A stretch of DNA of 64,000 nt from Yuukianura sp. NJ FZ-2021 (GCA_046563655.1 CM102285.1:11036001-11100000), one strand, 5' to 3'. Positions 22,148 to 59,100 are shown, counted from the stretch's first letter. Translations and numbers: made by a program. The notes: a model not told the origin generated them from the letters alone.

Positions 22148-23750
22148 TCAATTAACGGACGAGGCGCACCGGCATTGACATTGCGGATTGGGGGCTGGTT
22201 GGTATTGGACCGGAACTTGATGATTGAGGCAAGAAGATTGTGACATCACTGGCATCATGACCGGCATGGCCATAATTGGCACCATTTGAGGAACGATGTG
22301 TTGTTGCTGGTGCAGAGGAGGGTGATGGCAAGTAGTAGTAGAGCTGTAGTATTGTGGTTGAGCAGCAGTTTGAGAACATCCGACATTGGTGTGACGTACT
22401 CCAGTTCCCCCGTGGTTGCTGCAAGGACATTGAACTTGAATGACAATCGGGATGTTGTGGGACGAAGGCACGCTCATGACGGAATGCGGATGTTGAGCTC
22501 CGTAGATTTGAAGTTGGCACTGGGTTGCAGCGGAAGCACTAGTTGCGCTGGATGAAATTGACGAATTCGGTGAAACATTCCGTTCATCCTTTACTGAAAG
22601 TCTAGGTACAACGGAATCCTGTTTGCGATCTTGTTGGAGCATTTTTTCCCGCTCCCGGTATGAATCGACGAAAGATGTAGCAGATGAAGCGTCGGAAAAC
22701 TTTGGTTTTGGATCGACAGCGTTCCCGCCTTGGAAGACACCGCTGCTACGCATGTCCCGAAGGCTGAGTCTGTGTCCATAGATCACACCGTTGCTACCGT
22801 TGCTGTTCTTCGATTGCCGTTTAGGAGTCGAGTGAGGCGGGGAACTCGGAATGCTACCAATGGAGGTAATATTACTAATCGCAGTGATGTCCATGATTCC
22901 CACGGTAAGCGTATCGTCTTTTTCTTTGTTCGGAGGGGTCTTTCTAGTATAGTCTTCCGTTTTTGCGTAATTCTTATTAGCAATGGCAATGGGCCCCGCT
23001 GTACTCTCTCTTTCCTTTCCCATGCAATACTTCATGACTTGGTTGATCATTTGCTCCGACCCTTGTCCTTCAGATTTGGAACCCATGAAAAAGCTAGTGA
23101 GACTCTCCCGAGTTGAGGTTTCCGGCTGCTTTGTTCTCAAAGCGGCGAAGTTGATGTTGTCGTCATCTCTGAGCGGAGGAAGTTGTGAGCGAGCCTTGAA
23201 GTATTCACCAATACTGCGATTTCCACCAACTAGTGAAATCCTGAAGAAAACAATAAGTTTAAAACGTGTACTATTACAACAATAGACGAATTCAAGGGTT
23301 ATTCAACGTACGCTGACATTCTGCTCGCCATAGAAGTATTTCCGAATTCGGTTGCATTCGTAGTATTGAATCTCCGTATCGAGTCCGCATCTTTGTCTAA
23401 GCGTTTGGCCAATGAAGTCAGTGACATATCATGAAACTGGTCATCGGTAACGTTGTAATTGTTATTTCCACCGCCGCCATTGTGAAATGCTCTGTAAGGA
23501 TAAGTCATAATAGGAACATAAATTAATTTAAACTATTACTAAAGTGTGAGGAGACGACAGCGTTTAAGTCCACGACCTGCCATTACTAGACCCAAAAAGT
23601 AAATGCATTTTACATGGAATCAAGGTGAGTATTTCTCCCGAAATCTACAGCATCCCAATCAATCGACGACGTAAGCTGTTGGTTCGGAATCGAAACCGGC
23701 GATGCGTTGTATCGGGAATTAGCCGGAACCTGGCCTCCTCGTTGGTTCAT
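22148..23750 (-). CDS. Uncharacterised ~469-aa low-complexity (S/Q/P/H/C-rich) protein, 3 exons
   Basis: Exons 23750-23614, 23491-23312 and 23240-22148 join in frame at GT-AG sites (1,410 nt in total). The 330-codon ORF of the supplied track is its last exon. Confidence 0.7.
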
Positions 23751-26150: not shown

Positions 26151-29100
26151 ATGGCCTCCGAAGCTTCAACTAATGCGCCGAATCTGGACATGGAATCGTT
26201 ACCACAAGATGTCAAAAATAAATTGGCTGAGCTTGAACTGGAACTTTCTGAAGGTAAGTGCCCATGTTTCTGTACAACTCGCTTTCTTTTCCTTATCCAC
26301 TGCTTTGGTTGCTACTATTTTGATATGAGTATTGGAACGAAGGAGGGCGTAACACGCAAGCATTCCCACCCAGATTCGCTGTATAAGAGCGTAAAAAGCG
26401 CAAACGCATTGCAGTACTAACTACAAACAGAACTTAAGAATATGAACAGCAGGCGCACCTCGCGTAGTAACGAAATCCATGAGTTGTAAACAGACCGCCA
26501 CTGTAACACGGCACAAGTTAGCCGAACAGCGCACGTTAACGCAACACGGCACAGGTTAACACTGTTGCAAAATTAATTGATTAAATGTGCCGAATTTTAA
26601 AAATTCGCACCTTTGTCAACATTTTATTTGTAACTTCTTCCTATTACGCCATTCGTAAATTTTTGAAAACGATTTCAGTTCCCTCTCCTGATATTGTAAA
26701 ATAAGTTTCCTTATGGCATCGAAACGTAGCATCACTTTTTCCTAATTATGTGGAACGCAAAATTGCATAAGGTGTGGTAAATTTGTTCAAAATAACACCG
26801 TACTTAGCTAGGAAATGAAAGTGGATCAATTTAACAATTTTGGTTATGGCTTATTAGTCCTGGTTGTTTATTGCCGTAAGGATTGAATTTTCGTTCCTTT
26901 TTAAGGTGCAACACTTTGTCAATTTTACACCTTTGACTTTTTAACAGTCACCACTCCAATGTCTAAACTCCAAAAACCAACAAATTATTATTATTAGGTC
27001 CTCGTTCCTTAAAAAAACGTTGACCGATTTTCACTTGGCCAATAACGTATGAAGCAATATTATTTTTTAACATGACAAAACTATGCTAAAGTCAAAGTTC
27101 TCGTGGGATTCCCGATAATTAATTTTTCCTGAATTTTCAAGCTTCATATTTTACAAATTCAAAATCAAAAGAAAGGCTTATCAAATTGAATCTTTTGGTG
27201 ACTGTGAAGTCCTGTATTCGACATTTGTTAATGATCTGCTGATCCGCAATACACATTTAATAATCCAAAGTGGGCGATGGATGTGAGATGTGATTGTTTG
27301 GAGAAATATCATTTGTAAAAAATTGAATACATGAATAAGGAATGGATATGGAGAGGGCGAGATCGTAAAGAAAGAAAAATATTTTTGAAATCTGATCTTG
27401 CAGACTTAATTTGGCAAACAAGGCATTGGCAGTTACAATTGTTGAATTTAAGGATCTGTTCCGAACTTGTTAAGTGCAATGACTCTCCCTTCTTTAAAAC
27501 TTTAATTTGTTAGTTGTTCATTTTTCTTACTTTGGTTTTTTGGGGTGTAGAATCCGACACTTGAGAAGAGTTAGATTGTGCTTTTGTTGATCATGATGAT
27601 GATGAAAATGAGAGCAAACGATAACGAGAGGGGTGAAGGAACAGAGATTCACGAAATCTTCCTTATTCTTCAATTCCTTCATCTCGATGATGGAAAACTT
27701 CTGTTCGGATGGGGGTGTTTGGCCGGTTTGTTCATCTTTTCCCATGTCCTGGCTCAGTTTTTGGCCAATGAACAGACGAACAACAAAGTCAAAGTTTCAT
27801 TCAAACCAACAACATCTATCTTACAACACTTCATATTTTTTGGAGAGTTTAATCGACACTTGTCAGACGAAATGTTTTTGGTAAAGAGTTTTCAAAACTG
27901 AACGTGTGGTTGTGGTTGAATATTTTCCATTCACGATTATTATTCTGTTCCAGTATTGAATTACGGTGGTGCTGTCTGCAGTTGTTGCTGGAAAATTTAA
28001 GATTTTAGAAAGTTTGTGCGTATGGACTTGTGTGAAGTTTTGAATTTGTTGACGTAGTGTAATCAATTCCTGTTCCATACTAAATTTACTTTGCATAGAG
28101 ATCTACAGTTGCTTTCATCTTCTTCCTGATCTGTGTGTGTTTGAGGACGTGGTTAGCCTTACTATTGTAAAGAGTAGAACTGAAAGGTGATTTACGGGAG
28201 AGAATAGGATGGGAACAATGCCTATTTGCTAGCCATTGTATTGTATCTTATTAGAAGGAAAAAGTTGAACATGCTGTTGAATATAAACTAGGGCTATTGG
28301 AACAACAACAATGAATTAATGTCTATTCGTGCTAGAGATTTCGTTGGGAGGGAAGCTGAATTTTAATTTAATCTAACAGAGTTGAATTCATCAAGCCGTT
28401 TGGATTTTTCATCGGAGTTGGTGTTAGAATGGAGGCAGAAGCTGCTCAGGAAGTGAAGTTTAAACTTTGTAAGTTACAAAATTACAAATTGTAACCCGCC
28501 CAACAGAGACCTTGTGTAACATGGTAAATTATACTCGGGCTACTCTCAAGATCCTAAGTTTTCTGTGGTTGGGAAAAAATACAACTCTCACTTCACGGAT
28601 TCCACCCTTCCCGCGCTGGCTGGTATGGGCAGATCAATGAGAATACTCATTGAGGTGCCCAAAGTGGAATTGAGTGCAACCCATGAAGTGAGAGTTGTAT
28701 TTTTTCCCAACCACAGAAAACTTAGGATCTTGAGAGTAGCCCGAGTATAGTAGTGTTGTGCGACACGGGAAACTTTTTGACGCAATTTTTAAGTCACTGC
28801 TCAGCTCACCGACAGCCGTGATGATGTGGAGTGAAAGTGAATTTGAAAAGTTTTTTTCCCTTGTGTAACTTCGTTCCGGTGTTCTATGTACTATATTGAG
28901 TTAGTGCCAATTGGCTCATTATAGCATCAACCATCCCCTCCTCGTTAGAAATCGTGTGAAAAGTCTTATTGAAGTTTTTATATACTTTAATTGGGGAGAG
29001 GGAGATGAATGAGAAGTTTTAGAAAGAATCTTAAATTGGATAACACGCCTTAAGTTGAACAATTTAGAGCTGCTTTTGAAAGGCTCAGTGAATGACAGGA

Positions 29101-32100
29101 GAGTGAGTGGATTGAAGGCCTGTCTTTGCCAAAAAATTGACACTTCTAGCGCTGTTTTTGTCCTTCTCACTAACTACAAAGTTGAAACTTCCAAAGTTGA
29201 TTATTTCAAAACGAGGCACGAATTTTCCATTTCTATTCAATTGGAAATTGGAATAAATCATTCCAAATTTAAAAAGTGACGTGGACTGGTGCATTGTGTT
29301 TTTGCTGATGCTGATGGTGGTGTCTGTGCCTTTTGTTCTTTCTTGATTGAAAAGAGGGACGTAATAAGTTGTGCATTTTTTTAGACTTGGGATTTCGCTT
29401 GTGCTAATTCCCATTCTCATCTTTATTACAACGTCCATTTTTGTAATACACAGGATCGTCTAGTATTGTTTTTGTTGTTGTAAGAAGACAAATAACTTCA
29501 ACTTCCCTCGTGTCGTGGCCCGTGTGAATTGTGGGAGACAATTTTAATGTTCTTCTTTGGTCTTCGTCCGTCGTGAACCTTTGTTAAAGTTTGAGTTTTG
29601 AAGATGTACGAACTAAAAGTTCCTCGTGTGCGAAATGGGAAATTTTGTTTCCGGTAAATTGCTTCAGCTTTTTGGAAAGAAATAAAGCTGGCAATTGCGA
29701 ATGACCATTCTTCATGAAGGATTTAGTCGTGGGACAACATCAGTTGTTGGTCAAAAGACTTTGAGAAGACGAGGGAAGTGTTAGTGTTTGGGTGTTTGTT
29801 GGGTTTTGAAATATGTAACAGTAACAAAAGTGTGGCAGAGGCTTTAACGCTTAAGGAAGACTCTTGTGCAAAAGTTGAGTTTAGTGTCATTTATGAAAGT
29901 GGGAAAATGAGAAGGAGGAAGTAACTATTACGAGGAGAGTTAGCGGAATTAGTGCCTTGTGCCTCGTGTTTTGTTGTTGAAGCTTGAAGGTCCCGTTGAG
30001 ACTCCTAGCTGCGTTCTTTTATTGAGCAATCATAATGATTTTAATGGAGTAATTATATTTCATGGCACTGATTCCTTTCTCTTCTGCTCTGACTTCTGTG
30101 GTTTCTTCTCAAGATTCATTTTCTACTTATCTCAATCCCATCAACGATCAACATCTCCTTATGTGTATTGCTCTCCTGGTGGAAATTGGAAAGGTGTAGC
30201 GTTGTTTTTTGTGAGTTGCGGTGATTATTAATTTGTTCGTGGAATCCCTTCGCAGTGTGCATAGTTCAAGGTCTAAAGGCGGAAAAAGTAATCAAGAAAA
30301 ATAGTTGGCCCTTGCCCTTGGTGGTTTCGGAGAGGAAAACGAAACTTCAAAGCTCCTTTTCCTTTGAAAACTGTTGCAAATCAAAATCCAAAGTTTTGGT
30401 GAATTGCTGTGCAAACTGGTCAGTTTAACATTTGAGTTCGGTGGAAGTTCAGTTAGTTGGAAGAGTAAATTTGATAAACATCAAGAAATTTCTCAACGAA
30501 TTTTGAGTGGGTGGATTTAGGCTAGAGATTTACAGATTTTGTAAGAGCAAGGACGGGATTGTGTAGATGTTTTCGGAAAATGAAGGAATTTAGTCTGGAG
30601 GCCCTTAATTTCAAATGTTATTTACAAAGCGTGAGACGTTTCTAAGCCCGTTTTTGGAAGTTAATTAAAGTTAATAGAGGAAATATGAAGACTCCATGGG
30701 AAAAACTGCGACAACTCATGGGTGGACGACCGAAGAAGGAAAAGGAACCAACAGATTCTTCAAAATTTGCACGGAGCTACTCTTTCAAAAGAACTTCAAT
30801 TCGAAGAAGTGGTCGTCGTTTGGTAAGATCTTCAAATGAAGATTCATTAGGACAGATTAGGTTCAATGGACAAGGGAGCCCGTCAATTCAGACTAAATTG
30901 GAGTCGAGGGAGGGCAGCAACCGTAACGGTCCACGAAGAAATACGGGAGAAGTGTCAGGAACTAATGCTGATAGAGTTCATCCGGCTTCCTCTTCTTCAC
31001 ATTCGGCTCGAGATGAGGGCAGGGATTCAAGTCACTCGAGTCAATTTTTGCCAAAAGTCGAGATGATTCCGCAAATTGGGAGGCGGGAGAGGGTTGAGAG
31101 GATTTGTCGTCTAATGAGTCAGGATTTGGATGGTGACGATGAGGAGGGGCCAGTAGTGGTCAATGGTCGCGGCAATCAGAATCACCAAGTTCAAGACAAA
31201 GGTCAAAGTCAAATTTTGCGGTCAAGTAGAAATTGGCAGTATATTGATGATGATGATGGTGATGCCTGCTTGGATTTGGAAATGACCTCGCCAGAATCTT
31301 GTGCAAATGGCCCGAGGAAAGCAACAAGCAAAAACTTTGGGAGTGACGCGAGTGAGGAATTTAGAAGAAGAGAGGAGTTGATTGCTGATTGTTGTGTGAT
31401 TGAGAGAATGGTGTCCAATGCCATAACTCATTCCATGGACAAGGAAGATATTGTAAACAGTTTGCAAAATGGAAAACCAATCTTTGGTGACCATGAAGAA
31501 GATGGAAAGGACGGAGGAACAGAGTTGACAGAGGATTTTCATTCCACAGTGTTGTTGGATAGTGGTTTCTATCAAAATTCTCAATCAGTTCAGCAAAATC
31601 AAAATTGGAAAGTTGGAAGTGGTGAAAGTCGAAGCAGTTATTTGGACACATCCATGGATTCGGCTGTTCCATCGCTCCCACGGTCTCAGGAAGGGGGTAC
31701 TACTCCTGCTCCTGGCACTTCCTTGAAGTTTTTTGAAGAAAATCCACGAAGTTTTTGGTGGACTCATCAAAAGCCCGGCTCAACTCTGACAGCTTCGTCA
31801 GCCGGATCAAAGGATTCTGGATTCTCATTGGGATTGAACTGGGCGTCTGGTCTAGCCAAAGTTTTTGGACGGAAAGATGCCATGGCTGGACCTGTTTTGA
31901 GTGTAAGTAGAGAAGGCTATTTTCAAAGAACCAATTTGAGACGCTCTTCTGGTCGGAGGGGAAAGCATCAGGTTCTGCGGGGTTCCGTCGTACGGAAAAG
32001 TGGAGCAAATCGAACAAGGCGGGTCATTGCATCAAAGAAACTGATTTCAGTTGGTGGCCCACCGATCCGAATTTCACCTGTGGTGCCACTGTATTCAGAG

Positions 32101-35100
32101 AATTCCCTAGACGAAATCCATCGAGTATACAATGTAAAGAGAGCTATCAGCCTTGGAAGACTTTGTGATGATGAAGCGGTATCTTTTGTAGTACCAGAAA
32201 GGCGAAAACCTCGAAATGGTAACAACAGTAGGCAGCAGAAAGTGATTCAATCTAGGAATGAGGCTCGTAGTCTAGGATATCATAGATTTGATACAATCGA
32301 AATCCGTCTCCCACGTCTTCGATGTGAAACGAATGAAGGAAGCAGTGCTATTTTGATTACAAAATCTCCAGAACCTTTGTCCTCTTCATTTTCTCGATCA
32401 AGAAGTAGAGGAGATGAAATTGGTAATTTTGGAAGAGGTGTTGGTGTTGGAAATGAAATTTGTGCTGAGAAGGTGAATGATGATGAGAGTGAAAGTGTGG
32501 AGTCTGATGTGAATTCTGAAAATGAATCCGAGGATCAACTTTTGGCGGGTGTGGGAGGATCAAAAGACTTGATGAAGAGGAAGGAAGGATTTGTTGGACG
32601 GAATAATCATGGGAAGCGAATTGTTGCGAAACCAGGCGGGTCGATTGTGAGAAGACGAAATAATAATGTCAATGGAAGTCTTGGCAGAAGATCTAAAATG
32701 GGATCAAATTTTGCACTACCTCGACCTTCTTTCAAAACTGGTAAGAATCATTTATTATATGATACCATAAAGTTTTTTTTTCGTTTTCGGAAAGCGGGTT
32801 ACTGGAGAATTGGAGTGGGAGAAAAGATTTCTTTTTCTTTTGAGTTGAATGGGCTAGTATGATTTGAAAGTAGGGCAGAGAGAAAGGTAATTGTGTTTCT
32901 GTGATATTTGAAACAGATTTGGGAATATTTATTACTAGGAGGAGGGAATTATTAATGTTGCAAGCTCTAACATTTTCGAAACCGAAATTCACCATTTTGA
33001 GGAAGTTTTGGTTAATTCAGATTGCAACACGTTTGATGTTGAACTTTGCCGGAATTAAAAAGTGAAAAATTCTAGGGATACTGAACCTCTATGTAAGTAT
33101 TCAGTTAGTTCACGTTCAACTTCAAATTGAAGATTTTCTAAAACTTTGTTGATTTCGAACTAATTATAATTAGTACTGAAAATTGAAAAATCAAAAATTT
33201 AATTTTAAATTCTTAATTCCAATTTGAGTTTTCGAAATTAAAAATTGGTTGGCGAAAGTTGGTGAAAGTGCTTTCACCACAAAGACAAATTTTATTTTCG
33301 TCGTCTAGTCGTTTTTTTTCGGTTTTATTCGAGTTTTTGTTTTAGGGTTTAGGTTTTAGATTTCTTTTTCTTTTTTTTTTTGTGAGAATTCAAGCGTAAA
33401 AGCGGTTTTGTCATAAAGTTTTATAACTTTTTAATTTTTCATTGTCTCCCTAAAACTTGTCATTTCTGTCCGTCTGTCGGCTGCTACTAGCCGTAGGACA
33501 GAAGCGGTTTCGAAATGATGACCTTTTGGCCTAAATTCCAAATAAAAAAAAACATAACAAGAGTACCATGTAAAAATACATTGAGGAAAGTTAATTGTGT
33601 ACGCATTCTCATCTTTATTGTGCCGCAATTTCTTTGTTGTGAGTTGAGTCTTCACTTCCTCAAAAAATACGTTGGATTGTAAATTGCTTTCGGAATTTTA
33701 TGCCTAAGTTTGTGAATAATGTGAATTGTGATCGTCTTTATTGTTGCTGTATAACTGAATAAGAGGATTTAAAATTTGCTGTAATTATAGAATGAACAAT
33801 GGGTTTAAGATGACGTTTTGAGCGCTGCACATCAAATTGTAATTGCATAGTTTGAAATTTTTTACAAATCCGGTTTAAACCTCTTTTTAGCTGTTTATTA
33901 ACTGCAAAGGGATTTGGGAATTGACTATTTTAAAAGGTGGTTAAACAAATCTTTGGAATTTGGAGCTTCTAAAATGTGTAGTTGAAAAGTTTTCGTAGAC
34001 AGCATGATACTTACTGAATAGTTTTAAAATCTGGTTTTTGTTAAGCGTTACTAAAGTTTCCTCCTGTTGGTTTTTTAGAAAACATTTTGGGAAGTTTTTG
34101 GGAGATAATGAAGCCTAAAGTTATTTCTAAAGCAGTGAGTTTATCCTCTTAAAAGTGCGTTTTTGAACACTTTACACGAGATGCAACCCTCCTAAAAAAT
34201 TGTATTTGTATTATTTGTTGATAGGGTGTTTGAAAAATGAGGGAGGATATGGTAGGGGGAAGCTTTTGAAAATTTAGTGTAGCTCAACATGTGGCATCTT
34301 CCCCGTTCTAAAAGTTCTGGATCAATTTTTTTGTGTTTTTTGTCTGTTACTGACTTCGTTTGAAGTACTAAGGGTCAGAGTCATGTTAACGTTAAGTTAA
34401 AGACCCTCTCTCTATTCAAACTTTGTGTAAAAATCGTCAAGAGGTCTGTTTTTAGACACTGTATTTTTAGTTTCAAAGGAGCCGTGGTGCTGGATTGAAG
34501 AAAATTGCTAAACTCTTTCAAAGTTCTAAGCAAATGTTTTAGAAGGAAGGTTTTCTAAAAAGAAAGAAGTTTTTTGTTGGACACTTTGAGAGGACTTGGA
34601 AGGTCAATTTGTGTTTGAACTTTGGTTCTTGGAATTTTGTATCTTTTTTGGGAGAGGGAGGTTCTAAGTGGATGAAATTGAAGTACTAAAAAGTGAAAGT
34701 ACAGTGTTCCTTTTCTATGGAAAAAGTTGTTCTTTAGTGACTTTTTGGCAGAGACTGTGATGTCAAGCGGCTCGAGGACATTCGCCCAGTGGGAAGTGTT
34801 GCTTTAGAATTGGGAATTTCGGAGTGTTTCAGCGTTTGCAAAGGGGTTTTCGGGTCTTTTTCTTGAGTCAAGCGCTGGAGATTGAGCAGAAGAAACCCCA
34901 AAGTAGGATGGGTTTGTGAACTTGGGAGAATGAGCTTGGGCTTAGAAGTTGGAAGTTCCACTATACGGCTTGGCTTCATGGTGAAAAGTGTAAGAATGGA
35001 ACTAACTCCATACCGGGGGAAATTTTGAGTTCAGTAGGACTCGAACCCTGGACTCGGTTTGAGTCCTTCCCCCTCGCTCTCCATCTCCCTTGAACTTTTT

Positions 35101-41100: not shown

Positions 41101-44100
41101 GCTTTATTAAGTTGGAATTTACTGTGACTCGGGGGATGAGTTTTATTATCACTGTAAGTTTTGTACTTTTGGAGAGACGAGCAGAAAGACTTTGGATGTG
41201 AGAAGAGCATTGTCTTATAGGAAAAAGCAATTTCATTGTTCATTCCACGAGTGAGTTCTAGTAAAGAAGGAACCCTGTCATTAAATTGTGATTAATTAAT
41301 GGGTTTGCAAGGTTTAATGTCTTGCTGTTACTGCGAAGTAACCAGGGAGGAGGGTACAGGCTGTGCAAAGTGATTTGTGGAGTTTCGTCGTTTTTAAAGT
41401 TCAACCAAAAGGATGCTGCAGATTTTTGGATTAGTGCGAAACGACGTGCGAATTATTTGGATTGGTGGGGCATGAGAATTTAAGCTGGACGAGAGATGAT
41501 GAACTTCTTAAGGTTCAAGTTGTAGTTTTGCAAACACACAGAAAAAAGAAGTGGGTGGGATTTGAAGTTTAAGTTTAAGTTTAGGCTGATGGTGATGACT
41601 ACGGCAGACGCATATTAGAGTGAACTGATTTCATTTTCATCTTGTCAAGTGAGAACATTTTCGGAACTTTTTGGATTTAGGAGTGACGGAAGAAGCAGAA
41701 CGTAAGAAAGAATGTCCAAGTTTGGAAGGAAAAGATAAGTCTTCTCCTGACATTCATTTTCTCCACTTCTTGTACGAAGCTCAAACTTAGGTTTTAAGTT
41801 TGGGAGGGATTTTGGTTTGTGCTGAAAATCTTTGGAAGTCTTTTCGAAAAGAAGAAAATCTCTTTTGCTTGCTTTTTGAAAGAAGTGGAGTGAATCGTGG
41901 AAGAAGGGAAACTTATCGTGTATTGATTGCCTCCAGATCAGTTCCACTTCTGAGAAAAACCCAGATTTTGTATTTATACATTTCAGTTTGGTGTGGTACT
42001 TTTTCTGCTAGTACCAGAAAATTGAACACTGTTTTTTCGGATCCGAATTTTACGAGAGGACTGGGCTTGTTTTGAATGTGTTGTTAGAGTTTGGGCTTTT
42101 GCGAAAAAGGAAACACGTTGTTGGATTAGTACTATATCTTGGTGAAGTTTGAAGAGTGAAGTGTTTTGTGATGTTTCGGGTTTTTTGTTTCTGATGTTGC
42201 GGATGCTGGGATTTCAAATTTCGGATCTTCTAAAACAACGTCTTGGCTCTTAGTCTAATAAAGTCGGGCTTTTCTCAGTGATTTGACAAGGCAGAAAACC
42301 AATGCCAAAAGATAACTTCAGAGAAGAGAGAATTACGATACTCATCGCCTTTTCCTTTTTTAGAGTTTGCAGAAAGTGACTTTAGAAACACTTTGAGTGA
42401 TGGCTAATTAAGAAGTGCCGGAGAACAAAGTGCTAAAGATTGTTATTTCGGATTTTGGCTTAATTATGGATAGTAGTCGACGGGGAAGAGGGAATAATGG
42501 GGCTGGTCTCCGTCCAATTCCACCGTATATTCCGTATCATCATCACCAGCACCCGCAGTTGACAGAACCAGCATTACCATGGACACCGAATCCGGTGTCA
42601 CTTCCGCCCCGAATTGGACCCGCCCTGGGAGAAAATACCCGGATTTTCCCCTGTCCTCCGTCGGAAGTGCCCACAGTTCCTCCAAGGACGGCAGCTCCAA
42701 CGAATGGGATCAGTGATAATTGGGTTGATTTGGAGGAACTGTATAGATGGCTACAGGAACTCGAAGATACGAAAATAGAAATTCCGAGAAACGACGGAAT
42801 CAGTGATGAAGACAGCATGGGTAAGGAAAACGGGGATTTTTTTGAGAAAAAGAAAAAAAAACAGGATTTTTTGAAAAGAAAAAGCGAGCTTGTTTCCGTT
42901 CGACTTAAACTGAACGACGCTTGAGAAATTAGGTCGGTGCTAAAAAGGAATGAAAAGACTTTAGAACTTAACCGGAGAAAAAGCTTCCTTGGTTTGGTGG
43001 CTTTTGTAAATGGCCTAACGAACTTCTGGAAGTTTCAGGAAATCGAATTAAACAGAGAGAGCTTTTATTTATTTGGTAGACTTTTTGTGGATTCACAGTA
43101 GTTTTCGTTAGCATTTCCTAGAAAATATTGGTGCAGTGCGAATAAATTGCACGAAAGAAGAGAAAGTGTCATTGTCAAAGTCGGTTTTTGAAATAAGCTA
43201 TGCCTAACGTTTGAAGTGGTGCGTGATGGTGTCCATTGTTTTGGTGTATAAGTGACAAGCTCATTTGATTTCAGCATTTTGAGCAGCCGCAAGCATAGGT
43301 TTTGTATTTTTAGACCTTGGAAAAGTGAGTAACGTTTATACAATGGTCATTTGAATGCGAATTGACGATTTGAAATTACTTTATCTCATCAGAGGATTAT
43401 TAAAATGAAATTGAGTTGCTTCTGCGTGCAGACGTTACTAAAAATGGGAAGGTTCATTTGAAATTTTTTGTTTTTGCAATTTCATTTTGTTGTGTTTTTG
43501 CACTTGTACATGTACTCAGGTACTTTTTGGGGAGTTGGAGTTGTGGCTTTGTACATAGGAATGAAAGATCTTGATAAGTGGGTTTTAAAGCACCAAACGC
43601 GTTTTTCGCAATGAGAATGAGTCATCAACGTTCTTTGTGTTGTACAAAAGTATCCACGCAAAAATGTAATCAAAAGGCGAAAAATTCTGTGTTTTGGTTT
43701 TTGCAACTTTTTTTTGAGTTGGGGGAGATTCGCATAATTTTTACGTTGATTACGAATCGAGCTTTGTAATTCCAGTTTTTGTTATTTATTACAAAGTGGA
43801 GGTTCGTGAGCGGAATTCAAAATAGGAACTCATTCCCTTATAAGGTTGGCTGAATCGTAAAATGTCCGGTTTTTTTGCGTGTTGTTTCGTTTTTTCGAGG
43901 TCATGACCTGAGCTTTCCTTTCTTGATGATTTTTTTTGGATTCTGGAAGGAAGATGATTTTTCGGGAGGGAAGATGGTAATTTTGGTATTAAATATTTAG
44001 TGTTCCGTTCTACTTTTTTTTCATCCCGTTGTGTTTCTTATCAAAATGATCGGAAGCTGTGGAGTGAAAGTCCTCATGTTCATCATCCGCTTTCTCCATT

Positions 44101-47100
44101 GTTTCCAAGTGAATGGGATCAAGCCTCTCTCCCTCTCTCTCTGCTGCTTGAACTCTGAACTCTTATTGACATATTGGTTTCAATGGGATTTTGGCTGGTT
44201 GCTTTTTGTTAATGGGAAAAGATAGGCTGGAAGAGGCCTGAGTAGAACGAATTCCATTGTGCCATTTCCCCTTTGTTAATCTCATCTCCTGTTCAAGTGG
44301 AAAAATCTAAGAGCTAGGGGTTTTTCACAAAAAAAAGAGGAAAAATAATGACAACCTGAAGCTGAGCTTTTAGTTTTTTTTACTTTCCCAATTTTTATTT
44401 TCTAGGACTGAATTTTTACAAGAGCGAAGAGCGTAGGCAAAATTATTGCCGTCACTTGCCTTTGTTAGTGCTGAATTTTGTTGGTTTTGGACTAGAGAAA
44501 TTGACTTGAAATTTTGGACGAAAGTAACAACTAAATATGTTTTTAGCTTTGTAGATGTTGTGTATGAGGGGAGATCGACTGCTTTTCAATACGATTTCCT
44601 GCAAGCTTTTTGTTAAAAACACAAGCAAAAATTCCTTGCAGAAAATAGGGACGAACATTTTCTACAAGCTTTTTTCTTGCAGAAAATGGAGGCGTTGTTA
44701 TAAGAAACATGCGGAAAATCCAGATGTTGTTATAAAAAGCTTGCGGAAAATCGAGGCGTTGTTATAAAAAGATTGCGGAAAATCGAGACGTTGTTATAAG
44801 AAACATGCAGAAAATTTGAGGAATTGGAATTTTGAAAAATTCAGCTGAAATTCAGCTTTTGGATATACTTGCCTTGCCGAAAATTCACGCGTACTCTACC
44901 GTCTTGAAATGTCGGTCTCGTGAAAAATTGACCTGTTCTCTAACTTTTTGACGTGTCCAAATTTTTAAAAATTCACTTGTACACTTACTTTTTGAGGATT
45001 TGGAATTTTGAAAAATTCAGCTGAAATTCAACTTTTGGGTATATTTGGCTTGCCGAGGATTCACGCGTACTCTACCGTCTTGAAATGTCGGTCTCGTGAA
45101 AAATTGACCTGTTCTCTAACTTTTTGACGTGTCCAAATTTTTAAAAATTCACTTGTACACTTACTTTTTGAGGATTTGGAATTTTGAAAAATTCAGCTGA
45201 AATTCAACTTTTGGATATATTTGGCTTGCCGAGGATTCACGCGTACTCTACCGTCTTGAAATGTCGGTCTCGTGAAAAATTGACATGTTCTCTAACTTTT
45301 TGACGTGTCCAAATTTTTAAAAATTCACTTGTACACTTACTTTTTGAGGATTTGGAATTTTGAGAAATTCAGCTGAAATTCAACTTTTGGATATATTTGG
45401 TTTGCCGAGGATTCACGCGTACTCTACCGTCTTGAAATGTCGGTCTCGTGAAAAATTGACCTGTTCTCTAACTTTTTGACGTGTCCAAATTTTTAAAAAT
45501 TCACTTGTGCACTTACTTTTTGAGGATTTGGAATTTTGAGAAATTCAGCTGAAATTCAACTTTTGGATATATTTGGCTTGCCGAGGATTCACGCGTACTC
45601 TACCGTCTTGAAATGTCGGTCTCGTGAAAAATTGACCTGTTCTCTAACTTTTTGACGTGTCCAAATTTTTAAAAATTCACTTGTACACTTACTTTTTGAG
45701 GATTTGGAATTTTGAAAAATTCAGCTGAAATTCAACTTTTGGATATATTTGGCTTGCCGAGGATTCACGCGTACTCTACCGTCTTGAAATGTCGGTCTCG
45801 TGAAAAATTGACCTGTTCTCTAACTTTTTGACGTGTCCAAATTTTTAAAAATTCACTTGTACACTTACTTTTTGAGGATTTGGAATTTTGAAAAATTCAG
45901 CTGAAATTCAACTTTTGGATATATTTGGCTTGCCGAGGATTCACGCGTACTCTACCGTCTTGAAATGTCGGTCTCGTGAAAAATTGACCTGTTCTCTAAC
46001 TTTTTGACGTGTCCAAATTTTTAAAAATTCACTTGTACACTTACTTTTTGAGGATTTGGAATTTTGAAAAATTCAGCTGAAATTCAACTTTTGGATATAT
46101 TTGGCTTGCCGAGGATTCACGCGTACTCTACCGTCTTGAAATGTCGGTCTCGTGAAAAATTGACCTGTTCTCTAACTTTTTGACGTGTCCAAATTTTTAA
46201 AAATTCACTTGTACACTTACTTTTTGAGGATTTGGAATTTTGAGAAATTCAGCTGAAATTCAACTTTTGGATATATTTGGCTTGCCGAGGATTCACGCGT
46301 ACTCTACCGTCTTGAAATGTCGGTCTCGTGAAAAATTGACCTGTTCTCTAACTTTTTGACGTGTCCAAATTTTTAAAAATTCACTTGTACACTTACTTTT
46401 TGAGGATTTGGAATTTTGAAAAATTCAGCTGAAATTCAACTTTTGGATATATTTGGCTTGCCGAGGATTCACGCGTACTCTACCGTCTTGAAATGTCGGT
46501 CTCGTGAAAAATTGACCTGTTCTCTAACTTTTTGACGTGTCCAAATTTTTAAAAATTCACTTGTACACTTACTTTTTGAGGATTTGGAATTTTGAGAAAT
46601 TCAGCTGAAATTCAACTTTTGGATATATTTGGCTTGCCGAGGATTCACGCGTACTCTACCGTCTTGAAATGTCGGTCTCGTGAAAAATTGACCTGTTCTC
46701 TAACTTTTTGACGTGTCCAAATTTTTAAAAATTCACTTGTACACTTACTTTTTGAGGATTTGGAATTTTGAGAAATTCAGCTGAAATTCAACTTTTGGAT
46801 ATATTTGGCTTGCCGAGGATTCACGCGTACTCTACCGTCTTGAAATGTCGGTCTCGTGAAAAATTGACCTGTTCTCTAACTTTTTGACGTGTCCAAATTT
46901 TTAAAAATTCACTTGTACACTTACTTTTTGAGGATTTGGAATTTTGAAAAATTCAGCTGAAATTCAACTTTTGGATATATTTGGCTTGCCGAGGATTCAC
47001 GCGTACTCTACCGTCTTGAAATGTCGGTCTCGTGAAAAATTGACCTGTTCTCTAACTTTTTGACGTGTCCAAATTTTTAAAAATTCACTTGTACACTTAC

Positions 47101-53100: not shown

Positions 53101-56100
53101 GTGTATGATGGGAAAAAGTTTCGATTTTTGTGAGGAAATTAGAAACATTGTATTGATTTCAAAAATTAAGTTACAAGGAGGAGAAAGTTTCGATTTCGAA
53201 ATGCTTTCACCTTTTGGTGGGTTAGGCTTTGCTAGTGAATTTTTTAACTTTTCTTAATTTAAAAACTTTTTGGAAGAGGGGAGAATGTTATGGTATGGAT
53301 TATTAATTCTTTCGTTTTTCCTTACCTCGCAAAGTTTAGAAAAACTTTTTAAATTTTGGGGGTAGGCGACCGTTTTGTGTTTAGGGAAAGTTGACGTTTG
53401 TGATTTATTTGTGGATGTAAATGGAGTTTGGGAAATTGGTCCCATGATTTTTGAATGCTTCTAGGTAAGTAAGTTTATAGTTTACGGATTCTACATATTA
53501 GTGCTCTAGTGCTGTAGAAATGCTGACTGCCTTAAAAGTTGCTTGATGGGACAGGTCTCATTAAGGATTAAAGAAGAGGTATTTAATTCTGGTCTATTAA
53601 ACAGACCAGGAGAGAAACATTATTAAGTTGCGACGCACTTAAGTTAACTAAAACGAAGGAATACAGGAGAAGAAGGCGCTAGAAACTTAATTATATAATT
53701 TCCGTTTGTATCTTGTGCGGTTACGTGCGGAACGCGAACGCGGCAAACTGGGGACAGTTCGTTCGGATGTAGTGTTGGTTAATGCGACTGGAAATGGGAA
53801 TTGCTTTTTACGCGACCAAACGAAGAAAGTAAAGTATGGGTTGGCGCTGTTTTACTGTAATTTTCTACGGATTCGCGCTGTTTTACTGTAATTTTCTATT
53901 GATTCTTTGTTACAGGTGATATCACACAAAAGGGCTATGAAAAGAAGAGGTCTCGCATCCTGGCTCCCTACATTCCGAAACAATCGTTAGGTAACGTGAA
54001 AATTCACTTTTATCTTTTTGGATTTGGTGAAAGTTTGGATTTTTACTAAAGCTTTTCCTTTGTTGTTGTTGTTTGCAGCGTCAAATTCGAATGAAGGATC
54101 AGCTAGTCCAAGTACTCGGGCAAAGCGAAGGGCACACAGGAGACTGACGCGAAATGAAAGCAGATATCACTCAGGTTAGTGTGTAACTAGAAAACACAGA
54201 GAACATGAAATGTAACTTTGAAATTTTGGACAAAGACACATTGGAAATTCCGGCTAGCTTTCTTCTTCACCTGGGGACACTTTCTCCTTCCTCCGTAACA
54301 CGAAAGTCATTTAAACTAACTGTCACTCGGAATGGGATTTTGTCTGGAGTCTGACATGGGAGACTTACTTAACATCCATCTGATGGTATGATTGTAGAAA
54401 ACGGATGGAAATGTTTTGTTGTCAAGGCTCGGGAAGTAAAGTGGCGGCGTTCGTTGGAAGTAGGACGACTCTGTATTTCTATTTGGTAGAGCTTACAAAA
54501 TTTTGTATAGTAGCGCAGCGGAGAAGTTTTAGCAAAAGAATGAGAAACCCGGCAAATCTATGAATCCTGTGGAGGAATTCGGGTAATATTTTTAAACGTC
54601 AAGGAATTGTTAAGACGAAATTGTTCGGTTCTGCTGGTTCTATTCTTGAAAGTGGAAAGCGAAAGACCAGGGGTCTCACCTTTTATTTCATTTTATTTTG
54701 TAGAATGGGGGAAATTATGGGCTTGGAGGATGATAAATGGAAAGAAGTTTATGGGCTTTTATTATGTCTTTTTGTGTTATGAAGATCTAAAGAACTAGGC
54801 CAAGCCACACTGCATTGCGTAACTGACTAAAAACCAAACCCGCGTAACCAACTTTTTGCTAGGAAGAAGATGAAAGTTTATTGGAATGATGGTTTTTTTC
54901 TCGTGGTCTCTTGGTTTGGTGTAGCTCTGCGGAGTGTAAAGATGGAGGAGGGAAAAATCCATATCATCAAACACCATGAATCAAAGTTGACAATTTCAAA
55001 ATCCTCTTCAAGATTGGAGTCTCCTGGACTTATAGGACGAGAAAGTTTAGCTTTGGGAGCCATTGGTTTTGGTGTTGGAGTAAGCGTGAAATGACTTTTG
55101 GATAAAAGATTGTCATCGAGGAGTTTGAAAAGAAAATGACTGTTGGTTTTTTAAAACAGTTATTACTTTCCAAGGACATGAATCACAGGCTTCTCTTGTT
55201 TACTTTAATGAAGTTTGATAATATTTTAGGGCTTAACAATTTTGAGAGTGATGCTGGTGCTTAGTAAAGTGCAGGATGCACTTAATTGTGAGTTTGAGTT
55301 TATGTTTCGAATCTGGAATAAGAGCTGAGTCAATTGAAATTTGAGTGAATGGATTTGTTCAATTCGAAACACATTAAGATTCATAGTAACAATGACTAGG
55401 AATTTGAGAAGGGAAATGGGAATAAATGGTTGCCTTGTTGGATTTATTTCCGGGCGAGAGAGGATTGATCCCGCTTGTGGCCTACTCAATTCTTAATGTG
55501 TTTCTCGTGGTTTCAAAATGTATGACATCATAATGTCATTTTTCATTTTGAGTATCATTTATTATTAAGACGCAGAATTTAATGGGATATGGAGGTACAA
55601 AGCGCGCGTTGATGCTCATTCTAAGGACTTTGGTATATGTCAGGACCATCCATGGTTCTTCTAAATTGCGACTTCGAATTGTGAAATCTGGGGATAAACG
55701 TGTACTATACGATAAACGTATACGATAAGTCTTTAGCGGATAAAATTATTTCACGAATTCTGCGTTTTGAGAGGTTCTTAAAAATTCAAACTTGTTTTTT
55801 CTTCTTTTTTTTTTGCTGAGGTTTAACGCCATGTAATGCAACTGAATCTGCCCATTAAAGTATCAGTGACAAAAATTTCCCAGTTTCCTTTAATTACAAA
55901 CTGTCTAAAGTAAAAACTATTTTTAGGGTTTTTCTAATTTTTGTTTGTTTGTTTGAATTTTTCAATCGTTTTGAATTGAAATTGAAAAATGAACGAAACG
56001 AACGTGTACAAGGCCAATTTTTTTTTAAACAGACAAACTTGAGTTTTTGAAGTTGTTTAATAAAGTTGGTTGAAATTCGTCATTTTTAAAAGTTTATTCA

Positions 56101-59100
56101 TGTTTCGCTTTTTATACGAGTGTTAAAATAAGAGCGGGTTTGCGAGAAAGTTTAACTAGAGAAAAGTAATGCAAGAAAAGTAATGCAGTGTGGCAGAGGT
56201 TTTAGCTTATTATTTGAACACGCTCTCAACTCTAACTGGTTGCTCATGTGTACGACTGACGCAAGAGCGAAGAAAGTTATTTTCCATTTATCTAATTGGA
56301 ATTGGAGATGAATAACTTAAAAAGGGAGAGAAAGTGGGATGTCTTGGAGAGTGATATGAATATTTGGAAGGAAAAAAGTTTTGAGTGAAAGCCAACTAAA
56401 TAATAATAGTAATAACAATAATGACAAGGAGTTTGTTTATCTAACTCCGGGAAAAGTGTAGTTTTTTGGAAAGTTTTGAAAATGGCTGAAGTTGACTTTT
56501 TAGTTTGTGGAAAGTGGGAGGGAGGAAGGGAAAGTAGGCTGAGAGATAGGAGCAGGAAAAAGGAATTGTTTGACGTTTTGAGGTCTTGTCTTCTATCGTT
56601 TTTGTGTCTGTTTGGAATTCTGACAAGGGAAAACTTGCTTTCTCCTGTCAGCCACTTCTGCTTTTTCTGGTATGTGGAAACGGGGTAATAATAACAAATG
56701 GATGCTGCTCTTGAGCTGGTTTTTGGTTGTGGTCGATTGCATGTGAGCAGGGCTAAATAATTTGTAACGGTATATACTGGATTCTGAATTGAATGGGTGA
56801 AGGTGGGTTGGCAGGTTTTCCGTTTTGGTTGTATTGGTACTTTGTTATAAGGGTGTTCTAAGGTCGTACTTTAGATGGATTGGGTGAGATTAGCGTCAAG
56901 AGCTATCCACGAAATCCTCAGTTTTGTGAGTTAAGTTGTGTAGTGGATGGAGGACTTAGAGAGATACAGTTCCTGAGAACATAGAGGCATTAGGTAGGAT
57001 GGATGATCCATCTAATGATTTCTGATTTATTGCCTTTTCGTTTTTGCAGAAGTTCGGCAGGAAGCGGTACAACAAGCTTTGGCAGCAATGCAGACTCGAC
57101 CAAAACCGTCTCTGCCTATGCCGTCCAAACGTACATCTGTCATGGGAAGAAATACGGAGCAAGTACAGCACGATTCGGGTAAGACCTACTTTTTGAAATG
57201 ATGTAATTTGTTAAGGAATACCTACGCTGTGTTGAGTCATAAAATGTATTTGCTCTCGCCACTTACGAGCTTTCGGTACTGAATCATCCACTCCTTTTCA
57301 AACATGAATTGCGAAATTGTAGACCTCAAAAGGAGTTTCAGAAAATCAGTGGTTATAAGTTTTTTTTTTGTAGTTCACCAGAGTTGAGTACACTGAAAAG
57401 AAAATCCTCAAATCCTCTTGTACTCAGAAAAAAATTATTTTTCTTAAACTCTGGGAGCTTTTTGCTTTATAACGAAAAAAATCGACCAAGTCTATGTTTC
57501 TTTGTTGCTTTTTTGACAAACGATGGACAGAAATTCAAAAGAAAGTAAGAAAAATTTTTTTCTCAACATTCTGTCTCGAGGCTGAAAATTTTAGGTATTG
57601 AAGAGCCGAATTTTTTTTTACTCAAATTTTCACAAACCCATTTCGAAATATCGAAGTTCGATATTATTCAAAGCGGACAATATTGTTGTTGTATTCTTTG
57701 TACAAAAGGCGGTGGAAAATGATTTGTAGCACGACGAAACTCAAAATCATGCTCTCAAGTCCTCAATCCTCAAGAGGACGAGGACGACGCCTACCTATCA
57801 TCTACCACAGTACTTTTTGTCTCGGAATAAGATTCCTGTGGTGATGTAAGAGAATAGAGAAGTGGAAGTCTTTTGAAGCCCTTTAATTCATCAACTTTTG
57901 TGTATAAAGGCAAAAACATTGGTGAAAGTGGAATTAGAGGGAAGAGAACGAGACTTTCTCGACAGTTGGCTTTTTGTGAGAAGTCAGTGAAAGCAATTTT
58001 CTCAGTCAAAGGACCGCTGCTAAACAAATTAATTATAATAGGTTAACTGATTTGAAACAAGATTTATTATGGAATCGGAGAGCAGAAGGGGGTCTTTACT
58101 TTCTCTGACGTTGACTTCCCACAGGAAAGTACTAAAAGCGTCCTTGTGTAGAATACAGAATGATGAGTTGACAGGACTCAATGACTTGCGGGGTTTTGCG
58201 GCAAACGCTTAAAATCCCTTTGGTGTTCCTCATTTAGGAAGACACAGATTGATAAAGAAATGGAGCAGAACTGTTGAAGTACAGATCTCGTTGATTTTGG
58301 GGGTTAGGGAGTGTAGTTTAGAGGAAAATTCGAAAACTGCAGAGCTATAGTTTTAGTATTTAGAAACTAGGCCTAACATTAATTATGAAGACGAATGGAA
58401 CTCCAAATCTGAAGCGTCCTCTCTGGTTTTCACCTAAATTTTACGGATTTTAGGAGGAGACTTGAGGTTTTTGTGGTAAAAGGTTGCTATGCTCCTTGCT
58501 TTCACCTGATTTCTCACTGTCAACTAAAATCCGCAGCCTCATTAGGGCGAGATCCACTCTGCTGCTTTCTAATTCATTTAAATTGATGGAAAAGTAATTT
58601 ATCCGGGGAAAGGCTTCGTGCAGGCTTGAGTAGAAACGTGAGTGGATAGCTGCTAAACCGTGACTAAAAGTTGGTCCTACTAAGGTTAAAGTTTTTGTTG
58701 GAAAATAAGAATTTGTGGAGAAAGTTGTGATGATCTCAATTCTTCACTTGGTTTGGGTTAAGGTAAAGAGAGTAATTGGACTTTGAGTAAAAATGGGCTT
58801 GGTAATTAATCTCTGAGTGAGGTGAATGGGGAGAGAGCATGTAAGGGCATATCGAAGTTAAAGTGGCCCTTGGGAGAGTGGAGAAAGTTCGGACGGTGAA
58901 AGTAATAAGGAGAAAAGTTTCTCAAAGTGAAAAAGTTAAAAAACGACATGTTCTTTTTCGGATTAGGAAGAAAAGGCCTCTAGCCTTTTGCTTTTGCCTT
59001 GGTTTTCTTATTTGGGAAAGAAAGGAGAGAAAGCAAATGAATTCTTGGGAATCAGCCGTTGCAATGCACCAGACTTTCTCCAGTTGTGGGCTCAATTTTC

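Follow-up and report, generated by a model that had tools for sequence, protein, structure and literature searches.

A candidate alternative first coding exon of DIP2 in Yuukianura sp. predicted to encode a long, mostly disordered N-terminus

The DIP2 locus and a long open frame in its first intron

The DNA described here is a stretch of 64,000 nucleotides (nt) from Yuukianura sp. NJ FZ-2021 (GCA_046563655.1 CM102285.1:11036001-11100000), in the following simply called the window, with positions counted from its first letter. On its + strand it carries the first coding exons of DIP2, and the first intron of this gene contains a large open frame which is probably an alternative first coding exon and to which we refer as exon 1b. 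In excerpts of three papers, DIP2 is presented as a conserved regulator of diacylglycerol (DAG) pools and neuronal morphology and is described with a single domain layout, in which a DMAP1-binding domain is combined with two adenylate-forming domains (PMC9342972, PMC12055004, PMC6314549).

The canonical first coding exon, exon 1a (26151..26253, +), has 103 nt, i.e. 34 codons plus one nucleotide, and ends in phase 1 at the donor G|GTAAGT. Its product, MASEAS...LAELELELSE-G, contributes the first helix of the DMAP1-binding domain: residues 15-34 match positions 3-22 of the Pfam DMAP_binding profile (PF06464) with an expectation value (E) of 0.002, a match that, given the shortness of the piece, stays under the gathering score. 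Exon 2 (53916..53990, +; 75 nt, phase 1-1, acceptor ttacag|GT) encodes (G)DITQKGYEKKRSRILAPYIPKQSL, its start reading (G)DITQKGYEKKR after the join, and covers profile positions 24-45 (E 3.7e-7, 31.4 bits at a cut-off of 27). Exon 3 (54079..54174, +; 96 nt, phase 1-1) yields ...SNSNEGSASPSTRAKRRAHRRLTRNESRYHS and matches a DIP2 gene model of Allacma fusca (P0008). Exon 4 (57050..57178, +) yields EVRQEAVQQALAAMQTRPKPSLPMPSKRTSVMGRNTEQVQHDS-G and matches this same model and two unnamed ones (P0056 and P0072).

Between exon 1a and the common exon 2, and on the same strand, lies the candidate exon 1b (30685..32740, +). It spans 2056 nt, i.e. 685 codons plus one nucleotide, and ends in phase 1. The open frame leads from the ATG at 30685 to a TGA at 32862 (725 codons), and its stop-to-stop extent is 30646-32862 (738 codons). 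Exon 1b has its own start codon, and the frame is closed upstream by an in-frame stop 39 nt 5′ of the ATG. The exon edge at 32740|32741 reads TTC AAA ACT G|GTAAGA, and the predicted splice donor GTAAGA (32741..32746, +) sits at a codon position that is conserved in two related loci (L001 and L002). The 40 codons that follow up to the TGA (32741..32862, +) were read as intron and not as coding sequence. The donor phase is that of the exon 1a donor and of the exon 2 acceptor, all on the + strand; because exons 2 and 3 are both phase 1-1, splicing to 54079 or 57050 would keep the frame as well. An initial annotation had described this 2,056-nt ATG frame, ending at G|GTAAGA in phase 1 and matching both exon 1 and the acceptor at 53916, and the sequence confirms this description.

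An open frame of this size is not expected by chance. Stop codons have a frequency of 0.058 in the three + frames of the intron around it, from which the probability of 738 open codons is about 6e-20. The second-longest open frame of the same intron has 170 codons, and this one turned out to be another conserved exon, described below as exon 1c. The intron between the exon 1b donor and the exon 2 acceptor would measure 21.2 kb, with a long satellite within. At the third codon positions of exon 1b, C has a frequency of 0.11, the same sense-strand C depletion as in the surrounding introns, as would be expected if this stretch has long been transcribed in the + direction.

In the case of the start region, a motif scan detected two TCAGTT initiator-like motifs (30420..30454, +; at 30420 and 30449), 235-265 nt 5′ of the ATG, which form a possible transcription start region and are a weak lead. 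The same scan detected no TATA box upstream of exon 1b. Comparison of the upstream sequence to the L002 locus gave no conserved block, the best blastn match having 23 nt (E 0.06).

Some further details of the exon were noted. Donor-like GTAAGA/GTAAGT strings occur within exon 1b at 30823-30828 and 31905-31910 (+), both in the wrong phase for exon 2, and may be cryptic donors; the string at 31905-31910 falls in the invariant LSVSxEGYF codons. An antisense gene was considered too, as a minus-strand frame (31770-31916) matches all three related loci (L001-L003). This frame, however, mirrors the conserved PRSFWW...SKDSGF block of exon 1b, and minus-strand frames at exon 1b reach at most 120 codons; the antisense gene was rejected on both counts.

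Conservation, ties to DIP2 and rival readings

To describe the conservation of exon 1b, its predicted product (P0001, 685 residues) was compared to protein collections. Six relatives of similar length and four longer ones were retrieved. Among the six, P0002 also has 685 residues and is 44% identical across 98% of the query (E 2e-114), three besides P0002 come from Joint Genome Institute (JGI) metagenomes, and one weak match is a hypothetical protein of the planthopper Laodelphax striatellus. Identity of the homologues to exon 1b is 31-48%, and similarity is lost exactly at the donor. An alignment of ten sequences (A1, consisting of P0001 and nine homologues) was used as the basis for a profile and for an AlphaFold2 model. 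It contains 39 invariant columns, grouped in islands at residues 1-48, 126-146, 352-420, 501-508, 541-560 and 649-685. The N-terminal island reads MKxxSWDKLRRLMGGRKK...SSxFQRSYSFKRxSVRKSGRR and the C-terminal one KVIAKP...VYRRxSTLYRRxKLGPNFALPRPxxKxG; other islands contain IGRRQRAENIxRLMS, ETPRSFWWTQKPGSTxTTSSGASKDSGFSLG...KGPVLSVSKEGYFQRTNLRR, IFVPPERRK and RLPRLRCE...VLITK.

The A1 profile was then searched against 1.84 billion representative proteins, which gave 68 proteins at E <= 1e-3, a planthopper protein among them, and 33 at E <= 1e-10. For 40 of the 68, the top alignment begins at the first position of the profile and at residue 1 of the protein, as expected of an exon that holds the start codon. 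The homologues open with a common MKxxxW/F-D/E-K/N-L/I-R motif. The retrieved relatives begin with MKPITFEN/S-I/L-R...KKK...SFKRSDSFKRISIRKSYLDRG and retain SSKDSGFSFS, KLSVSRDGYFKRT, DPMIFVPPEKRK and ...RAPSTLRR. Judged from the style of their sequences, the unnamed relatives would be of insect type, the named ones being only Allacma fusca and Laodelphax striatellus. The exon 1b product itself matched no Pfam family at E <= 1, and searches of the Protein Atlas returned best scores of 0.82 and 0.84, under the 0.9 level, with no usable lead.

DNA of exon 1b was at hand for three species, the window, L001 and L002, as a further locus (L003) is identical to L002 across 1545 nt. The frame is not disrupted in any of the three. 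Over 504-662 codons, the proportion of nonsynonymous sites that differ (pN) is 0.46-0.49 and that of synonymous sites (pS) 0.76-0.79; we give no ratio of the two because pS is saturated (>0.75). In 95 codons from the conserved blocks, pN is 0.17-0.26 and pS 0.83-0.86, with the choice of blocks biasing pN downwards. The amino-acid sequence has thus stayed conserved in spite of the saturation at synonymous sites.

In the case of the eight aligned homologues that extend as far as the donor, similarity is seen up to ...LPRPxxKxG and no farther, and the tails beyond are unrelated and have 1 to about 28 residues, compared to 40 in the window. At the DNA level, the donor falls on the same glycine codon in all three species, with the variants G|GTAAGA (window), G|GTGAGA (L001) and G|GTGAGT (L002). 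Conservation that ends at a donor is, as we read it, the signature of an exon end and not that of a protein C-terminus.

The position of the exon is conserved as well. L002 stems from a 24-kb metagenome contig of a distant springtail-like relative, whose exon 1b is about 30-34% identical to that of the window. On this contig, exon 1a lies at 3240-3327 (88 nt, MASEIMIDVAQLPQEIRDKLAELELELSE-G|GTAAGC), exon 1b at 7790-9686 and exon 1c at 19167-19545, all ending in phase 1 on G|GT. The order is kept and so is the spacing, with 4.5 kb between exons 1a and 1b (4.4 kb in the window) and 9.5 kb between exons 1b and 1c (9.7 kb in the window). The predicted 1a/1b/1c arrangement is in this sense conserved between the window and its distant relative.

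A further tie to DIP2 comes from gene models. The Allacma fusca model P0008 ('unnamed protein product' at NCBI, 'DMAP1-binding domain-containing protein' in UniRef) has 2354 residues and contains the domains DMAP_binding, Mug62, AMP-binding and AMP-dom_DIP2-like. Its first ~730 residues are homologous to exon 1b (34% identity across 65% of the query, E 1.9e-44 with the single sequence). In a separate homologue search with A1 as query, P0008 was the only hit in the band of 2294-5000 residues (E 4.5e-129). Its junction reads ...NFALPRPTIKL-GDITQKGYEKKR, i.e. ...GDITQKGYEKKRNRLLAPYIPKQ..., which is exactly the join predicted between exon 1b and exon 2. Two unnamed models, P0056 (2135 residues) and P0072 (2676 residues), likewise have an N-terminal exon 1b homologue fused to DIP2 domains, with the junctions ...SSLRRRPR-DITQKGYEKKR and ...HSTLRRDFYC-GDITQKGYEKKR, respectively. 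The initial annotation had spoken of a hidden exon. In this respect it went too far, as the Allacma fusca annotation already has the same join; P0008 differs from the exon 1b of the window in being a database gene model from another species with a longer exon.

The other conserved frame of the intron is the candidate first coding exon 1c (42466..42820, +). It has 355 nt, i.e. 118 codons plus one nucleotide, and ends in phase 1 at the donor ATG G|GTAAGG. By tblastn it matches L002:19140-19586 (E 4e-16 and 5e-9), where the orthologue runs from an ATG at 19167 to 19545 with a phase 1 donor G|GTAAGC. The motifs NPVSLPPR and DNWVDLEELYRWLQELED are conserved, the latter being identical in L002, and the N-terminal 40 residues are poorly conserved between the two. 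No Pfam family matched exon 1c. An acidic amphipathic stretch of its product is loosely reminiscent of the exon 1a helix LAELELELSE, but lies 17 residues farther from the junction. Comparison of window positions 24000-57500 to the three related loci gave no conserved coding piece beyond those noted here. Thus, it appears that the coding part of DIP2 may begin in exon 1a, 1b or 1c, the three being mutually exclusive and each giving the first base of the junction glycine, and exon 2 is, by phase and position, their predicted common acceptor. Alternative first exons that make N-terminal proteoforms are commonplace. We regard exon 1c as a newly recognised third first exon of DIP2.

Altogether, we consider it likely that DIP2 has a genuine alternative first coding exon at 30685-32740, a view in which the similarity limited by the donor, the three conserved donors, the synteny on the L002 contig and the three fused gene models uphold the central inference of the initial annotation. 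Several points weigh against it. Use of the junction 32740^53916 and of a transcription start at exon 1b is predicted from sequence. The three fused models may be ab initio predictions, and P0056 lacks the junction glycine at its join (...RRRPR-DITQ), which gives at least one model another boundary. A Pfam scan, which covered 41 of the 62 new profile hits and left out 21 shorter or weaker ones, found 39 of the 41 to be stand-alone models of open reading frames without DIP2 domains and two, P0056 and P0072, to be DIP2 fusions. Read-through calling of open reading frames on genomic contigs gives such a pattern, and a nested gene would give it too.

Such an independent gene, nested in intron 1 of DIP2, would use the 725-codon frame with local polyadenylation or splice to exons that do not belong to DIP2. 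This alternative had been named in the initial annotation and is, in our view, unlikely, even if the stand-alone models, to which the Laodelphax striatellus hypothetical protein can be added, are still compatible with it. It also draws on the A[AT]TAAA hexamers at 33054, 33237 and 33541, i.e. 190-680 nt past the stop, which count against the exon reading as well, with the reservation that such hexamers are common in AT-rich sequence. A nested gene ending at the TGA should, however, have a conserved C-terminus, and the tail of 40 codons is conserved neither in sequence nor in length in any homologue reaching it. The donor consensus, in contrast, is conserved in all three DNAs, the phase fits exon 2, and the exon is part of a DIP2 fusion in three gene models. 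Nor did the comparison of the window intron to L002 provide other exons for such a gene: besides exon 1c, which has its own ATG after an in-frame stop, no conserved coding piece was found on the + strand.

Exon 1b could also belong to DIP2 without being its first exon, either behind one or more non-coding leader exons or in a series 1b-1c-exon 2, which we judge somewhat less probable again than a nested gene. A non-coding leader 5′ of exon 1b is possible and would make it the first coding exon yet not the first exon. In L002, a single AG with 12/16 pyrimidines in its tract lies 55 nt 5′ of the exon 1b ATG, whereas in the window no AG with a tract of >=12/16 was found within 200 nt 5′ of the ATG. 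The series is suggested by the fact that exons 1b and 1c both end in phase 1, so that a phase-1 acceptor inside exon 1c would hold the frame, and by a strong pyrimidine tract with AG at ~42350-42372, upstream of exon 1c. Between this upstream acceptor and the ATG, however, the frame of exon 1c is closed by a stop (42409-42411), the poor conservation of the first 40 residues of exon 1c is as for a free N-terminus, and the Allacma fusca model joins exon 1b directly to exon 2. As for a chance frame, a transposon-derived frame or a decaying pseudo-exon, the missing Pfam family, the low complexity and the predicted disorder could be taken to point there. The syntenic orthologues with 39 invariant columns, the 68 relatives, the conserved donor and a pN that stays under the saturated pS effectively refute it; in addition, the improbability of the open frame and its intactness in the three species speak against it, and transposase, reverse transcriptase or integrase domains were not found in the Pfam search (E <= 1).

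The predicted N-terminus and its possible role

The exon 1b product is rich in serine (13.4%), arginine (10.5%) and glycine (9.6%), with an isoelectric point of 9.6 and a grand average of hydropathy of -0.91. Its net charge is +12 in residues 1-48 and +9 in residues 26-50, and acidic stretches are found at 151-300 and 576-625. In the AlphaFold2 model, calculated with A1 as input, the mean predicted local distance difference test score (pLDDT) is 42.3, and 606 of the 685 residues are below 50; the only confident helices are two short ones, at 5-11 and 133-145. For an insect-like homologue (P0019), the Atlas model has a mean pLDDT of 0.36. With a shallow alignment, the AlphaFold2 model is supportive of disorder but not proof of it, and to this extent the disordered N-terminus proposed in the initial annotation receives support. 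The proposed richness in basic RxxS motifs does not hold, as eight were observed compared to 9.6 +/- 2.8 in 2000 shuffles, i.e. there is no enrichment over what the Ser/Arg-rich composition gives. Several of these sites are conserved in A1 nonetheless.

Concerning the expression of the proposed isoform, transcription would start from an own promoter inside intron 1 and translation from the ATG at 30685. Splicing of 32740|32741 to 53916 would rebuild the glycine and give ...PRPSFKT-G-DITQKGYEKKR, as phase, conservation and the orthologous gene models suggest. The resulting proteoform would retain the two adenylate-forming domains and the larger part of the DMAP1-binding domain, while a basic, Ser-rich and mostly disordered region of 685 residues would take the place of the first helix of that domain. 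The DMAP1-binding domain of this isoform would consequently be incomplete. The initial annotation had assumed that half of the domain is swapped; the replaced part is smaller, about 22 of the 111 profile positions (the first helix, roughly a fifth), with exon 1a covering positions 3-22. In the fused models, the Pfam DMAP_binding match begins at profile position 22 (P0008), 24 (P0056) and 9 (P0072).

In the predicted product, the N-terminal helix would be followed by a polybasic Ser/Phe cluster, RSYSFKRxSxRxSGRR, and by other short motifs: PRSFWW...SKDSGFSLG...LSVSxEGYFQRT, FVxPERRK, RLPRLxCE and the C-terminal RRxSTL...LPRP. We infer that the region would act through such linear motifs, in localisation or in partner binding, possibly controlled by phosphorylation at the polybasic Ser cluster. 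Our preferred guess is that the N-terminal module of 48 residues would be a switch for localisation or partner binding under basophilic kinases. Relatives of exon 1b in insects would mean that hexapod DIP2 has long switched between N-terminal proteoforms.

The effector domain of MARCKS is a polybasic, Ser/Phe-containing membrane switch and a substrate of protein kinase C (PKC). Residues 26-50 of exon 1b may resemble switches of this type, with serines flanked by basic and aromatic residues, a net charge of +9 and the conserved RSYSFKRxSxRxSGRR; here composition and conservation were the means of comparison. The motif is shorter and without lysine runs; the likeness is a lead and not membership. 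A DIP2-DAG-PKC axis has recently been proposed, according to excerpts of PMC12055004. As a speculation that we consider unlikely, hexapod DIP2 would have at least three N-terminal proteoforms, each from one of several mutually exclusive phase-1 first exons; the exon 1b form would lack helix 1 of the DMAP1-binding domain, and its module would be an electrostatic membrane switch controlled by PKC or another basophilic kinase, placing a DAG-regulating enzyme at the membrane and releasing it when phosphorylated, as a feedback arm of the DIP2-DAG-PKC axis.

N-terminal variation of DIP2 is as such not unprecedented. The parts of a 2019 paper available in excerpt report that the DIP2 locus yields several mRNAs differing at the N-terminus, and that the neuronal functions tested were independent of the DMAP1-binding domain, so that N-terminal variation is tolerated (PMC6314549). 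The isoforms described in these excerpts are with or without the domain, and a replacement of its first helix by a conserved disordered region of several hundred residues is not described there (PMC6314549). N-terminal isoforms are not mentioned in the passages found of two eLife papers on DIP2. Searches of the open full-text literature, with FlyBase and subscription papers outside the scope, returned no account of a DIP2 isoform with the exon 1b N-terminus.

A comparable arrangement exists in an unrelated gene. The N-terminal extension of the long myosin-15 isoform MYO15A-1 is long and largely unstructured, and the exon encoding it is very large. As far as the excerpt of the respective preprint goes, this isoform carries an alternatively used N-terminal exon on a conserved catalytic body, with distinct roles of the isoforms (10.1101/2025.02.19.639121). 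The comparison is by analogy, because MYO15A is a vertebrate gene unrelated in sequence and the exon in question is a cassette exon and not a first exon.

At the level of gene models, the join of exon 1b to exon 2 is not new, as at least one public annotation, that of Allacma fusca, contains it; novelty would fall further if a Drosophila orthologue were already annotated as a DIP2 isoform. What the present analysis adds is conservation across hexapods, a DMAP1-binding domain that would be broken, and exon 1c as a third candidate. If the isoform is real, knock-outs, rescue constructs, antibodies and N-terminal tags planned around the canonical start would miss or mishandle a major proteoform, and the 48-residue polybasic module would be a concrete handle on the localisation or regulation of DIP2. 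In many genomes, annotations appear to call exon 1b an orphan 'hypothetical protein', and its recognition would allow hexapod gene models at large to be corrected.

Other features of the window

The DIP2 introns have a marked strand asymmetry. Within 27000-64000 (+), except for 44815-51539, GC skew is +0.23 to +0.30 and AT skew -0.06 to -0.13. In the 26 kb upstream, GC skew is 0.005, rising to 0.14 between exons 1a and 1b and to ~0.25 after exon 1b. Pentamers of the TTTTG, GTTTT and TTTGG type are 3-6x commoner than their complements in these introns. As a whole, this looks like an unusually large transcription-linked depletion of C on the sense strand. The excepted segment, 44815-51539, is a satellite inside the DIP2 intron whose 176-bp unit is repeated 38.2 times at 99% identity. 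The satellite is free of GC skew and, therefore, presumably results from a recent expansion.

Outside the DIP2 introns, two tandem-repeat blocks (13024-13968 and 4241-5142) are open in several frames, with repeated peptides AHKLRYCAQTALLRTNCAT and CHLSPVTCRVSPVT-like, and are probably micro- or minisatellites and not genes. The minus strand has an open frame of 384 codons (22148-23302), some 3 kb upstream from where DIP2 starts and rich in Ser, Gln, His and Pro, which could represent an exon of a neighbouring gene with divergent transcription. Further upstream, minus-strand frames at 1071-1902 resemble what we take to be a cyclophilin-type peptidyl-prolyl isomerase.

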